Shown here: in pieces, positions 1,537 through 34,543 of the stretch | Position numbering within the stretch: position 1 is the first letter of the stretch | Layout: each line of letters starts with the position of its first letter | NCBI GenBank assembly: GCA_964439765.1 | Contig: CAYTOG010000003.1 | Span: 1-46,184, forward strand | Length of the DNA stretch: 46,184 nucleotides | DNA from: an uncultured Methanosarcinales archaeon | GTDB taxonomy: Archaea; Nanobdellota; Nanobdellia; Woesearchaeales; GW2011-AR9 | Direction: 5' to 3' | Position numbers and translations under genes: made by a program | Notes under the pieces: model-generated | What the model saw: only the letters and a program-made list of their open reading frames with translations | Databases searched by the model: none | What the model was told of the DNA's origin: nothing

Positions 1537-1611
1537 TGAGCCCGAGAGGATTCGAACCCCTGACCTGCCGGTCCGAAGCCGGCCGCAATATCCAGACTAT
1601 GCTACGGGCCC
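1537..1611 (-). tRNA. tRNA-Arg (anticodon TCG), no intron, CCA not encoded
   Basis: The reverse complement folds as a cloverleaf: acceptor GGGCCCG/CGGGCTC, anticodon arm GCCGG-CT TCG GA-CCGGC, T-loop GTTCGAATC. Confidence 0.95.
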
Positions 1612-11065: not shown

Positions 11066-11139
11066 GGGATCGTAGCTCAATCTGGGAGAGCACTAGACTG
11101 AAGATCTAGGTGTTGAGGGTTCAAATCCCTCCGATCCCA
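11066..11139 (+). tRNA. tRNA-Phe (anticodon GAA), no intron, CCA not encoded
   Basis: Acceptor GGGATCG/CGATCCC, D arm GCTC/GAGC, anticodon arm CTAGA-CT GAA GA-TCTAG, T arm GAGGG-TTCAAAT-CCCTC. Confidence 0.96.
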
Positions 11140-32949: not shown

Positions 32950-33630
32950 TCAACAAGATTGATCCGATTCTTCTGCCGAGATTGTGAGTGTTGCACTTTT
33001 AAACCCACTAGCATCATTTGGTATGCCAATAACCATCCCAAGAGCAATTTCATCGCCAGCTGAAGCACTACTTAAACAACCACAAGATTTAACTTCAGCA
33101 TTTGGTGTGCCAATGGGATTAATAAAATCAGTTGGTGCATCTTGTAAATATGCACTAGCACATGAATTGATTTCATTTTCAAATGTCATAGCAGCAAATT
33201 TTAATCCATCTCCTGTGAGATTATTTAAAGACCCTCCACAAATACTATCGCCTTGGCATGCAAAGCTATCACTCTCATTTCCTCGAATTTTATCGGATTC
33301 AACAGTAACATTAATTCCAACATTTCCATCATTTCGAATAGTGATGTTAAATGAATCATTTCCCCAAGTCCCATTTAGTACTTGTCCCATGATTGCATCT
33401 AAAAGAGCAGCATCTGCATCTGGATCAACAAACCCTTGACCAAAATCAATAGCATTGTTACCAGGTAAACTAATAGAGATATCTGTTGTTATGTTCAAAT
33501 CAACTTGGCCAGAAACAGCCCCAGTTAGAGAGTTAAGTGTTCTCAACTGATCAAATATTACTATACCTCCAATAACAGAAACAACTAACGCTACAAGTAA
33601 CATTCCAGTGAGAATTTTTCGCTCTTCCAT
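32950..33630 (-). CDS. Membrane-anchored surface or pilin-like beta-rich protein
   Basis: N-terminal TM helix, LTGA motif, IDFG, IRNDGNV and paired Cys. Confidence 0.72.
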   Translation of the reverse strand: MEERKILTGMLLVALVVSVIGGIVIFDQLRTLNSLTGAVSGQVDLNITTDISISLPGNNAIDFGQGFVDPDADAALLDAIMGQVLNGTWGNDSFNITIRNDGNVGINVTVESDKIRGNESDSFACQGDSICGGSLNNLTGDGLKFAAMTFENEINSCASAYLQDAPTDFINPIGTPNAEVKSCGCLSSASAGDEIALGMVIGIPNDASGFKSATLTISAEESDQSC

Positions 33631-33852
33631 CTATTTACCTCTTTTAAAACAAGGTAAAAGACTATTTTTTTGTTTAAAAAGTTTTCTAAAGTACAAAATC
33701 TTTTTTTACAGGGGAATTGTTAATATAAGGAAAATTTGGGGTTTTTAATAAACTTAACAATCAAATTAATTAGCAGGGCATTCACCCAATATTCTGCACC
33801 AGTATACAAAATAGTAACATTTATATACGTAATGCACTTTACTTGTAATTAA

Positions 33853-34010
33853 TGGATTGAGATCGGATTCGTCCACAGTTCTACCACCCTCACCCCCTCT
33901 TGTGGGTGAGTCTGATCTTGTCCAATTCCTTTTTAATCGGAAAGTTAAACTTTCCAAGGTAGTCCATAAGAGGTGGATGGTTGGGAGTCCTATGGGCTCC
34001 CTTTTCTTCT
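33853..34010 (+). ncRNA. Putative structured small RNA of unknown family
   Basis: TATA TTTATATA at 33820-33827. 20-bp helix 33859-33878/33900-33919 whose six non-Watson-Crick pairs are all G-U. C-rich 21-nt loop, two more hairpins, GC hairpin plus U tract. Confidence 0.65.
33983..34010 (+). terminator. GC hairpin plus pyrimidine-tract terminator
   Basis: GGGAGTCC-TAT-GGGCTCCC followed by TTTTCTTCT. Confidence 0.65.
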
Positions 34011-34186
34011 CTCATAATATTCTCTCCATAAAAATTAAGTAATACAATAAACAAAAATAAAAAAGAAATATATCTACCTATATGTTATTTACACAAAATA
34101 TATATACTTCTTCTATTCTCAAATTTATTTAGATATTCATTTGTAAAAAGATTAGTGTATATAGAAGACAAATAGAGGTGAAATAT

Positions 34187-34543
34187 ATGGGTGCACATGT
34201 TCTTGGAGAAGGATCTTGGGATGGAACTCTTCGTGGTAAGAGTGAAGGGATTTTTCATAGATGTATTGATTGTCAAGAAATTATTAGTAATCCTGTTTGT
34301 TCAGAATGTTTGTCCTTGCAAATGAAACAAATGCTTGGTGAAATTGATCCAAACTTACCTGAAAAAATTGTAACATGCAACTTTTCTGGAGATACTCATT
34401 GTATTGGGTGTGGAAATGAAATGGGGCTTTGTGCACATTGTTTTAGTAAAGATGTGTATGAACAGATTAAAGATCTTAACACAATAGCAGCGGAAGAATT
34501 TCTCGCAAGGTTTGATTATGATCTAAGAGTTATGTTCTGTTAG
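34187..34543 (+). CDS. Cys-rich double zinc-finger protein
   Basis: CIDC..NPVCSEC and CIGC..LCAHC; SD GAGGTG at 34175-34180. Confidence 0.8.
   Translation: MGAHVLGEGSWDGTLRGKSEGIFHRCIDCQEIISNPVCSECLSLQMKQMLGEIDPNLPEKIVTCNFSGDTHCIGCGNEMGLCAHCFSKDVYEQIKDLNTIAAEEFLARFDYDLRVMFC

Follow-up and report, generated by a model that had tools for sequence, protein, structure and literature searches.

We show by comparative analysis that positions ∼33850 to 33934 (short form) or ∼33850 to 34005 (long form) of the + strand are a small non-coding RNA gene in the window, a 46,184-nt stretch of contig CAYTOG010000003.1 from an uncultured archaeon of the order Woesearchaeales. The predicted product, C-loop RNA, displays a C-rich loop on a long hairpin and, judged from its homologs, represents a new small non-coding RNA family for which we found no earlier description. 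Its setting appears unusual, as the hairpin either forms the 3′ end of a putative regulator gene or is a gene of its own that follows the same promoter block, which is specific to the order. The best explanation of the data as a whole, in which our confidence is evenly balanced, is an RNA gene with a trans-acting loop that is co-produced with a winged-helix regulon. Specifically, the RNA would be made at a high level together with the regulon of the winged-helix protein and would act in trans through its loop.

The C-Loop RNA Gene in the Window

The site of the gene is a 550-nt gap between two ORFs without a clear family, one at 32950 to 33630 (− strand) and one at 34187 to 34543 (+ strand). 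A first-pass annotation of this DNA, made from the letters alone, had described a GC-enriched island in AT-rich intergenic DNA, and this description was borne out: the GC content is 0.44 at 33850 to 33999 compared to 0.16 to 0.30 in both flanks. The TATA box that had been noticed ∼25 nt upstream of the helix is also present, as TTTATATA at 33820 to 33827, 25 nt before the helix. It belongs to a conserved promoter block, CAGTATAC-AAAAnn-GTAACATTTATATA (33799 to 33827, + strand), which consists of an upstream element including a GTATAC palindrome, plus BRE/TATA. A CTTTAC element lies at 33837 to 33842 (+ strand), ∼10 nt 5′ of the predicted start, and inspection by eye of the family loci with a promoter block revealed that YTTTAC-like motifs recur at the same distance past the TATA box. 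From the usual archaeal TATA-to-start spacing, we infer that transcription starts at ∼33850 (±3).

The fold and the pair listing place the 5′ arm of the main helix at 33853 to 33878 and its 3′ arm at 33900 to 33925 (both + strand); the equivalent stem covaries across the family. Positions 33858 to 33878 form 21 consecutive pairs with 33900 to 33920 (7 G-U, 7 A-U, 7 G-C, and no A-C) and, beyond a U·U mismatch, 33853 to 33857 form 5 further pairs with 33921 to 33925. Thus, the earlier description of an uninterrupted helix devoid of A-C pairs stands, while its counts of 20 bp and six G-U pairs need correction to 21 and 7. The arms enclose the displayed G-free loop TTCTACCACCCTCACCCCCTC, which is 21 nt long (33879 to 33899, + strand) and contains the nearly invariant core TTCTACCACCCTCACCCC at 33879 to 33896. 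Directly past the main hairpin is a T5 run (33930 to 33934, + strand), the likely 3′ end of an ∼85-nt short form, and this form likely corresponds to the whole RNA of other genera.

A genus-specific 3′ extension holds a small hairpin, GGAAAGTT-A-AACTTTCC (33939 to 33955, + strand), which was identified in the fold, and the Shine-Dalgarno (SD)-like sequence AAGAGGTGG (33968 to 33976, + strand). The predicted 3′ end of the ∼155-nt long form is a terminal hairpin, GGGAGTCC-TAT-GGGCTCCC, with its T-run (33983 to 34005, + strand); the terminator-like hairpin itself spans 33983 to 34001 and is followed by TTTTCTTCTC. Two terminator-like sites were found in the region compared to 0.3 expected from shuffles. 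The loop, the small hairpin, AAGAGGTGG, and the terminator are all located where the first-pass annotation had put them. The 3′ extension can be aligned within the genus alone (G002 and G004), and the 3′ module with AAGAGGTGG, for which a putative pseudoknot or switch with the loop had been suggested, is carried by only three sequences. L002 and L004 likewise have AAGAGGTGG ahead of the terminal hairpin, and at least 7 of the 26 family loci have GGAAAAAGAGGTG in the 5′ leader instead. The + strand folds with −57.7 kcal/mol (z of −3.69), a value matched by none of 200 shuffles, and the − strand with −50.9 kcal/mol (z of −2.42), matched by 6 of 200.

Conservation, Covariation, and Strand

The RNA stretch has one match in its own 1.15-Mb assembly. 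BLAST searches with the stretch against 60 relatives revealed full-length similarity confined to the genus, with identities of 76% and 67%, and a loop region that is 89 to 100% identical in 21 further genera of the same family, where the flanks diverge. There was one strong match per genome, except for two near-identical copies in G022. Two complementary arms, the sequences of which vary by genus, flank the loop core at all 26 loci, and 16 alignment columns of the loop are invariant across 26 genera. As to gene order in the window's family, 17 of the 26 loci have an XPD-like helicase gene upstream and 12 have a 121-aa Cys-rich ORF downstream; we read this neighborhood as conserved gene order, not as a functional link.

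An exact search with the 18-nt core, using one genome per species, produced 82 matches. The promoter block is present within 400 nt upstream in 73 of these, where the hairpin was also recognized by eye, and the titles of all 73 records read Woesearchaeota, Nanoarchaeota, or "uncultured archaeon." Seven matches are bacterial records without promoter or hairpin, in line with the ∼17 chance matches expected for an 18-mer in 596 Gb. The remaining two comprise one locus cut by a contig end and one that has the hairpin without a match to the block. After de-duplication, 76 distinct family sequences remained, and 75 of them fold with the core in the loop and a stem enclosing it. Of the 76, 74 have the same 18-nt loop core, UUCUACCACCCUCACCCC, and the other two carry one substitution each (C to A in L022 and U to C in L026); a C-to-U change in the core is found in none of them. 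With only these two substitutions and no C-to-U change, which G-U pairing would tolerate, conservation of the core is stricter than pairing alone requires.

Covariation was measured on an alignment of 73 of the 76 distinct sequences to a covariance model, R1. In this alignment, which was fitted to the model, a step that favors structure (the raw sequences, too, show the compensatory stems), 93.5% of stem cells are paired and 12 of 12 stem pairs show compensatory changes on both sides. None of 500 shuffles reached any of five covariation measures, and sliding the partner by 1 to 3 columns reduced the covariation score from 0.486 to between 0.05 and 0.17. Thus, the search for homologs in DPANN genomes with covariation testing, which the first-pass annotation had proposed as a check, uncovered a conserved structure in which all 12 pairs covary and no shuffle compares. 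The C-loop feature is more than chance, being conserved with covariation in relatives.

In the family stem, G-U plus U-G account for 59 cells and A-C plus C-A for 9. Therefore the RNA is read from the + strand, as had been deduced from the G-U pairs of the single helix. Past the stem, a U-run of at least 4 is present in 64 of 75 homologs and one of at least 5 in 44 of 75. In most genera the RNA would be only ∼60 to 90 nt long, comprising a short leader, the hairpin, and a U-tail.

ORFs run across the loop in 33, 29, and 35 of the 76 distinct sequences in the three frames, respectively, and in 12 of the 76 none does; neither a conserved frame nor a conserved start was found in the three frames of these sequences. 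In the window, the ORF that crosses the loop is a 61-aa TTG ORF at 33857 to 34042. On the minus strand, the ORF that follows the G-rich motif reaches at least 30 aa in only 9 of 75 homologs and has a median length of 4 aa, so the 36-aa antisense ORF noted earlier finds no counterpart in most of the family. Coding potential on either strand was ruled out, as the frames are used about equally and the antisense ORF is unconserved; with it falls the suggestion of a type I antitoxin, for which a minus-strand toxin ORF would be expected. The predicted gene therefore has what defines an anti-RBS small RNA at the level of gene organization, namely a putative promoter and terminator of its own and no reading frame (block in 26 of 26 loci, U-runs in 64 of 75 homologs). 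These elements agree with the small RNA that was first proposed, and the near-invariant core and covarying stem point to its displayed C-rich loop as the functional part.

An Order-Wide Promoter Block, Hairpin, and Winged-Helix Gene

The 28-nt promoter block precedes the loop at each of the 26 loci of relatives, by 46 to 181 nt, and in the window's own genome it is unique to the C-loop RNA gene. When up to three mismatches are allowed, 169 of the 301 order genomes searched contain it one to four times, and the reversed control gives no match; this tally and that of 76 of 151 genomes given below for model R2 include the unpublished genomes G218, G280, G167, G156, and G241, on which no sequence-level statement rests. 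A phylum sample of 301 genomes has the block in 131, among them 33 of the 36 from the window's family, while the other orders of the class yielded one weak match and the control also yielded one there. Among the 90 downstream stretches that we read, the commonest gene past the block encodes a 134-aa protein beginning MVILFD. The MVILFD mRNA is probably leaderless because the ATG is often only 22 to 25 nt past the TATA box. The block also precedes ftsZ, genes for pilin-like proteins with a class III signal peptide and for secreted proteins, and a few other genes. Downstream of it in 13 cases, from seven other families, is a hairpin RNA that has the design of the C-loop RNA but a diverged loop.

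Searched for outside the family, the narrow model R1 matched 2 of 151 genomes, both within the family, which at first suggested an RNA restricted to that family. This was overturned by the promoter-anchored search and by a second model, R2, built from 12 family and 12 non-family hairpins, which together revealed homologs with diverged loops throughout the order. Model R2 matched 76 of 151 genomes of the order, usually once per genome, and in a phylum sample of 151 genomes with an unspecified share of other orders it matched 65, all 65 in the Woesearchaeales. By eye, all 28 of the best R2 loci have a GGCUCC-type stem, a nearly G-free loop, and a run of at least four C; every one of the 28 contains TTCT, and 22 contain CCACCCC. 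The order-wide design is thus a stem, typically GGCUCC…/…GGAGCC, a loop of 20 to 45 nt with UUCU and a C-run, and then a U-run. The stem sequence is partly conserved across the order, with G2, C4, T5, A55, G56, and C58 invariant in alignment A5. As the loop is nearly G-free, it is predicted to be unstructured.

Gene context was taken from the best 29 R2 matches, 28 of which could be placed. In 13 of these 28 loci the MVILFD ORF ends 3 to 137 nt upstream of the hairpin on the same strand, in 2 it starts 86 to 89 nt downstream of the hairpin, and in 10 the promoter block is found less than 200 nt before the hairpin with no ORF between. Inspection by eye of 13 MVILFD loci fetched via their promoter located the hairpin just 3′ of the gene in 8 and just 5′ of it in 2. 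Within the order the hairpin therefore takes three forms, lying behind the winged-helix gene, just upstream of the same gene, or alone behind the block. In the window's family, the winged-helix gene and the C-loop RNA are unlinked; the genome's own winged-helix copy is on contig C47, with only the BRE/TATA part of the block.

The 134-aa protein is highly conserved, with a mean column identity of 66% over 27 sequences and an invariant SYNKRQFYDRILTP stretch. Pfam and NCBIfam contain no family for it and a PDB sequence search gave no match. The search for homologs found 3661, and among the best 120 every one that is named by its source is called hypothetical. The structure model (pLDDT 87, pTM 0.77) is a winged helix with a long C-terminal helix. 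A Foldseek search with the model returned no match at E ≤ 0.001, and VIA-align returned generic winged-helix matches only (Z ≤ 8.3), which include the nucleic-acid-binding folds of ZBP1 Z-alpha, the Rpa2 WH, and MecI/BlaI at Z of 6.3 to 8.3.

Comparison with Known RNA Classes

The Rfam/Infernal search that had been suggested for this locus did not place the C-loop RNA in a known family: at the gathering threshold of Rfam 15, only the two tRNAs of the window score. A permissive run over 33600 to 34200 gave six matches, all far below gathering and hence noise, the one on the hairpin being mir-7445 with 17.7 bits against a threshold of 79. A reduced SRP RNA, RNase P RNA, or 5S rRNA was ruled out, as none matches at the locus and full copies are found elsewhere in the same genome, the SRP RNA on contig C24 (106.8 bits), the RNase P RNA on C25 (133.5 bits), and the 5S rRNA on C18 (55.3 bits). 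The first two of these had been named beforehand as identities that would speak against a new RNA.

Box C/D sRNAs have an RUGAUGA C box near the 5′ end, a CUGA D box near the 3′ end, and a K-turn, and their guides are complementary to rRNA or tRNA. We rejected this class, as there was no Rfam C/D match, no conserved C/D pair was seen by eye in the 76 homologs, and pairing of the loop to rRNA and tRNA is at shuffle level. H/ACA sRNAs have a hairpin with a pseudouridylation pocket, an upper stem with a K-turn or K-loop, and a 3′ ACA. The G-free loop of the C-loop RNA cannot form such an upper stem, and past its stem is a U-run, not ACA, so this class was rejected as well. In the portions of the literature on non-coding RNA, small RNA, and promoters of Woesearchaeota and DPANN archaea that were available, no RNA of this kind was found.

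Search for Pairing Targets

In the window's own genome, the full complement of the loop is found only at the gene itself, with three further sites at six mismatches. Likewise, in the near-complete genomes G031, G001, G022, G014, and G027, the long loop complement with up to three mismatches is restricted to the gene itself, and the reversed control yields extra matches at a similar level; G022 contains a second gene-like copy of the C-loop RNA. Predicted pairing with stable RNAs is at shuffle level, both for 16S (−24.9 compared to −22.7 ± 2.5 for shuffles) and 23S rRNA (−23.3 compared to −23.0 ± 2.3) and for the set of 5S rRNA, SRP RNA, RNase P RNA, partial 23S rRNA, and 17 tRNAs (best −24.7 compared to −24.0 ± 2.3), the window's own assembly being without a 16S gene and having a partial 23S gene.

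The 2313 predicted initiation regions of the own genome pair with the loop at a mean of −7.9 kcal/mol compared to −7.7 to −9.2 kcal/mol for shuffles. Strong sites (≤ −22 kcal/mol) number 18 in these regions and 6 to 14 in eight shuffles, a marginal surplus. Neither leaders nor SD positions show an enrichment of 7- to 9-mers complementary to the loop; for K = 8 in the SD window, 14 were observed compared to 10.1 ± 6.6, and 82 of 300 shuffles were as high. Thus, the general targeting of SD sites that was initially envisaged is not borne out. The loop had also been described as nearly complementary to GAGGTG sites. It reads CACCCUC and CACCCCCUC, and neither of these is perfectly complementary to GAGGUG, the canonical SD and the one that pairs with the 16S end.

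The ftsZ1 leaders of 25 family genomes have a conserved SD, GAGGUGGUGUAAA, and a G-rich box ∼25 to 45 nt before the start, the sequence of which varies and fits one or another loop register (GAGGGUGG, GUGAGGGUGG, and AAGAGGGGGUG are examples). Against the 25 leaders the loop scores a mean of −21.8 kcal/mol compared to −17.4 ± 1.4 kcal/mol, with 1 of 200 shuffled loops as good, a test that overstates significance because the leaders are related. The upstream window alone gave −15.5 compared to −13.1 ± 0.7, with none of 200 shuffled loops as good, and for the SD window alone 14 of 200 were as good, which is not significant. Perfect loop matches of 8 to 11 nt are present in L226, L231, and L243. 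In three genomes of other families, the four ftsZ leaders compared are short and without a G-box, and they do not favor the cognate loop. Complementarity of the loop to ftsZ1 leaders within the family is thus suggestive.

Discussion

How a trans-acting C-loop RNA would work can be outlined. Tentatively, and with the balance tilted slightly against it, we propose that the C-rich loop pairs with G-rich mRNA leader sequences, for which the ftsZ1 leader is the best candidate in the family. The candidate sites in ftsZ1 would be G-boxes such as GAGGGUGG and AAGAGGGGGUG at 25 to 45 nt upstream, plus the SD GAGGUGGUG. Such pairing would alter translation or stability of the mRNA, and the stem would act as scaffold, 3′-end protection, and terminator. 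Of the interpretation in the first-pass annotation as a whole, the + strand regulatory-type RNA and its functional loop have held, and the global SD binder and the type I antitoxin have not; the function itself is one that we infer.

The strict core and the partly conserved stem sequence would also fit recognition by a protein, with the neighboring winged-helix protein as the obvious candidate. The RNA would then be the binding partner of that protein, or of a KH- or Sm-type binder, which would recognize the loop and the GGCUCC/GGAGCC stem; it would titrate, scaffold, or feed back on the protein and not pair with mRNAs. We regard this as possible though on balance improbable. It would account for the tight order-wide linkage and common promoter of the two genes, the 16 invariant loop columns in 26 genera with just two single substitutions and no C-to-U change, and the stem sequence that is partly kept across the order, and it sits well with the lack of a convincing RNA target among genome, rRNA, stable RNAs, and initiation regions. 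The confident winged-helix model, which has nucleic-acid binders among its fold matches, is consistent with it too. However, these fold matches are generic, Z values of 7 to 8 being the usual best for models without a clear relative, and most such winged-helix domains bind duplex DNA or proteins. In addition, the spacing from UUCU to the C-run varies widely by family, which is awkward for one rigid site, and in the window's own family the genes for the RNA and the winged-helix protein are unlinked. The placement of the hairpin directly past the stop codon in 13 of 28 genomes, and its terminator-like stem and U-run, raise another explanation, that it is a mere terminator or 3′-end stabilizer of the winged-helix mRNA and that the stand-alone copies are relics. 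This seems to us quite unlikely. Termination in archaea needs a U-run, not a conserved loop of 20 to 45 nt, whereas the family gene, which has no ORF, retains the full block and a near-invariant loop in 76 sequences from more than 25 genera. A near-invariant loop in ORF-less genes argues for strong purifying selection on the hairpin itself. A promoter and hairpin without an ORF are moreover found in 10 of 28 genomes of other families.

The remaining explanations are less probable still. The 3′ half of the loop resembles the 16S 3′ end of the relative G031, GGATCACCTCCT, and the loop fits the G-rich SDs of certain genes, as would be expected of a global anti-SD RNA that competes with 16S rRNA. 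Pairing to the 2313 initiation regions is nevertheless that of shuffled loops, without k-mer enrichment, and the related proposal of a type I antitoxin RNA is contradicted by the antisense ORF, which is unconserved (9 of 75 at 30 aa or more) and which, extending into the promoter, cannot be maintained because the loop-promoter distance varies between 46 and 181 nt. We consider either of these roles very unlikely. It is hardly credible that the element is not an RNA at all but a small protein gene through the loop or a DNA site (a cruciform or an origin/operator box). ORFs do cross the loop in many copies, such as the 61-aa TTG ORF of the window, and a G-free loop cannot hold TAG or TGA; however, the frames are used in 33, 29, and 35 of 76 sequences and not at all in 12, with no conserved start. 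A DNA cruciform would not show pair-preserving stem changes with a G-U excess on one strand, and most of the genomes searched contain a single copy of the element (G022 contains two), whose U-run is confined to one strand.

Returning to the trans-acting RNA, a wider scheme, which we put forward as a rather unlikely extension, is that an order-wide cell-division/cell-surface regulon is governed by a two-part regulator, made up of the hairpin RNA and the winged-helix protein. The two parts would be either an RNP or a transcription factor with a co-transcribed riboregulator. The 28-nt GTATAC-TATA block would mark the members of this regulon, namely ftsZ and the genes for pilin-like proteins, secreted proteins, and regulators. 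Feedback on the system would come from the C-rich loop of the RNA, which would either titrate the protein or pair with the ftsZ1 leader. To our knowledge, almost nothing is known of gene regulation in DPANN archaea, and the literature on Woesearchaeota and DPANN RNAs, as far as it was accessible, yielded no regulatory RNA of DPANN archaea in print. If the two-part regulator is true, control of ftsZ by an sRNA would have its counterpart in archaea, and DPANN archaea would have their first described riboregulator. The RNA family, the conserved winged-helix protein, and the 28-nt block shared with ftsZ and cell-surface genes are three linked, testable parts, which open the control of division and envelope genes in minimal cells to direct experiment. 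The covariance model provides annotators with a means to find a gene that is currently missed.

Relation to Known Regulatory RNAs

Anti-RBS loops are a documented mode of archaeal sRNAs, exemplified by sRNA154 and sRNA41 of Methanosarcina mazei, which are independently transcribed RNAs whose stem-loops mask the ribosome-binding sites of specific mRNAs (review PMC5867862). The C-loop RNA shares with them the logic of a displayed pyrimidine-rich loop and differs in a loop that is far longer, nearly invariant, and no perfect complement of the canonical SD. It also has no sequence or Rfam relationship to them, shows no general preference for initiation regions, and is genetically tied to a winged-helix gene.

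Among bacterial sRNAs, RsaE/RoxS of Firmicutes and Yfr1 of cyanobacteria are small and conserved, with an unpaired C-rich motif between stems that targets SD regions. The C-loop RNA resembles them in an unpaired C-rich motif that is conserved over large phylogenetic distances; unlike it, RsaE/RoxS and Yfr1 are bacterial and non-homologous, with shorter seeds and known targets. Escherichia coli DicF is a prophage-encoded sRNA that represses ftsZ by pairing at the ribosome-binding region. The parallel lies in the ftsZ1 leader as the best candidate target of the C-loop RNA, and in the block that ftsZ shares in other families. In contrast to DicF, however, there is no sequence relation, and the link to ftsZ is a statistical pairing excess in one family only.

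CpxQ, which derives from cpxP, is a bacterial 3′ UTR-derived sRNA that reuses the terminator hairpin of an mRNA. Similarly, in 13 of 28 genomes the C-loop hairpin would be the 3′ end of the mRNA of a putative regulator. By analogy, a stable hairpin fragment could be released from the regulator mRNA and act in the same regulon. Unlike in CpxQ, the conserved "seed" of the C-loop RNA lies inside the terminator loop and not upstream of it, processing is putative, and the element is also found by itself, as a gene preceded by a separate copy of the promoter.

A promoter element shared by the RNA and protein-coding genes

Our analyses revealed that the 28-nt promoter block upstream of the C-loop small RNA, which combines a GTATAC palindrome with BRE/TATA elements and lies at 33799-33827 (+) of the window, also occurs at loci L132-L222. 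Behind it lie ftsZ, the winged-helix gene for the MVILFD protein, genes for pilin-like (QAAMEFLMTYGWAILVV) and secreted proteins, an RHH-like gene and the hairpin RNA itself. A search of 301 genomes of the order detected the block in 169 and gave 0 control matches; the block looks like the signature of an order-specific regulon.

The MVILFD protein (134 aa, named here after its first residues), which is encoded beside the hairpin in many genomes outside the window's family, lies in the window's own genome at C47:3811-4215 (L162:215-616), on the minus strand of that contig. Its structure model is a confident winged helix, and no named family was assigned to it. There are 3661 homologues; among the 120 best listed, all that carry a name from their source are labelled hypothetical. 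Behind the promoter block the gene is probably leaderless in many cases. The MVILFD protein is a candidate autoregulated transcription factor acting on the promoter block.

Ribosome-binding motifs in leaders

In the order, an extended ribosome-binding motif, GGGAAAAAGAGGTG, is found ahead of ftsZ and of other genes (L139, L152 and L153). At no fewer than 7 of the 26 family loci (L009, L011, L012, L014, L016, L023 and L024) the same motif is present in the 5' leader of the RNA, where no ORF follows it, and in the window's genus a related motif, AAGAGGTGG, is found 3' of the RNA hairpin. The 16S gene of genome G031 ends in GGATCACCTCCT, followed by a T-run that, if retained, could pair with the A-run.

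The ftsZ1 loci of the family (L224-L253; G000:C30:3240-4301 in the window's own genome) have a common SD in their leaders, GAGGUGGUGUAAA, as well as a variable G-rich box 25-45 nt 5' of the start. Farther 5', several of these leaders carry a GGAATAT...ATTCC-like palindrome.

Complementarity of the loop to 23S rRNA

The loop of the RNA can form 11 consecutive base pairs, one of them G-U, with a G-rich 23S segment, GGGUGGGGGUG, located at about position 2540 of the G031 23S rRNA (L120) and present also on contig C13 of the window's own genome. The predicted duplex, at -23.3 kcal/mol, is not better than shuffled loops reach.

Additional copies and genomic surroundings

Searches with R2, the broader order-level covariance model of the hairpin, gave paired matches on the same strand, ~100-200 nt apart, in five genomes (G039:C104, G102:C6, G103:C22, G271:C29 and G324:C10), which look like tandem duplications of the RNA. 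Genome G022 has the regular gene at C1:629521 and, at C3:10038-10055, another copy of the loop core that differs by one mismatch.

Downstream of the RNA, the window encodes a Cys-rich ORF of 118 aa (34187-34543, +), which gave only weak, zinc finger-like Pfam matches, all below threshold; 12 of 26 family loci have a homologous ORF in this downstream position and orientation. The window's own assembly lacks 16S rRNA, its 23S rRNA is partial (C13) and Aragorn detected only 17 tRNAs; tRNA genes lie in the window at 11066-11139 (+) and 1537-1611 (-).
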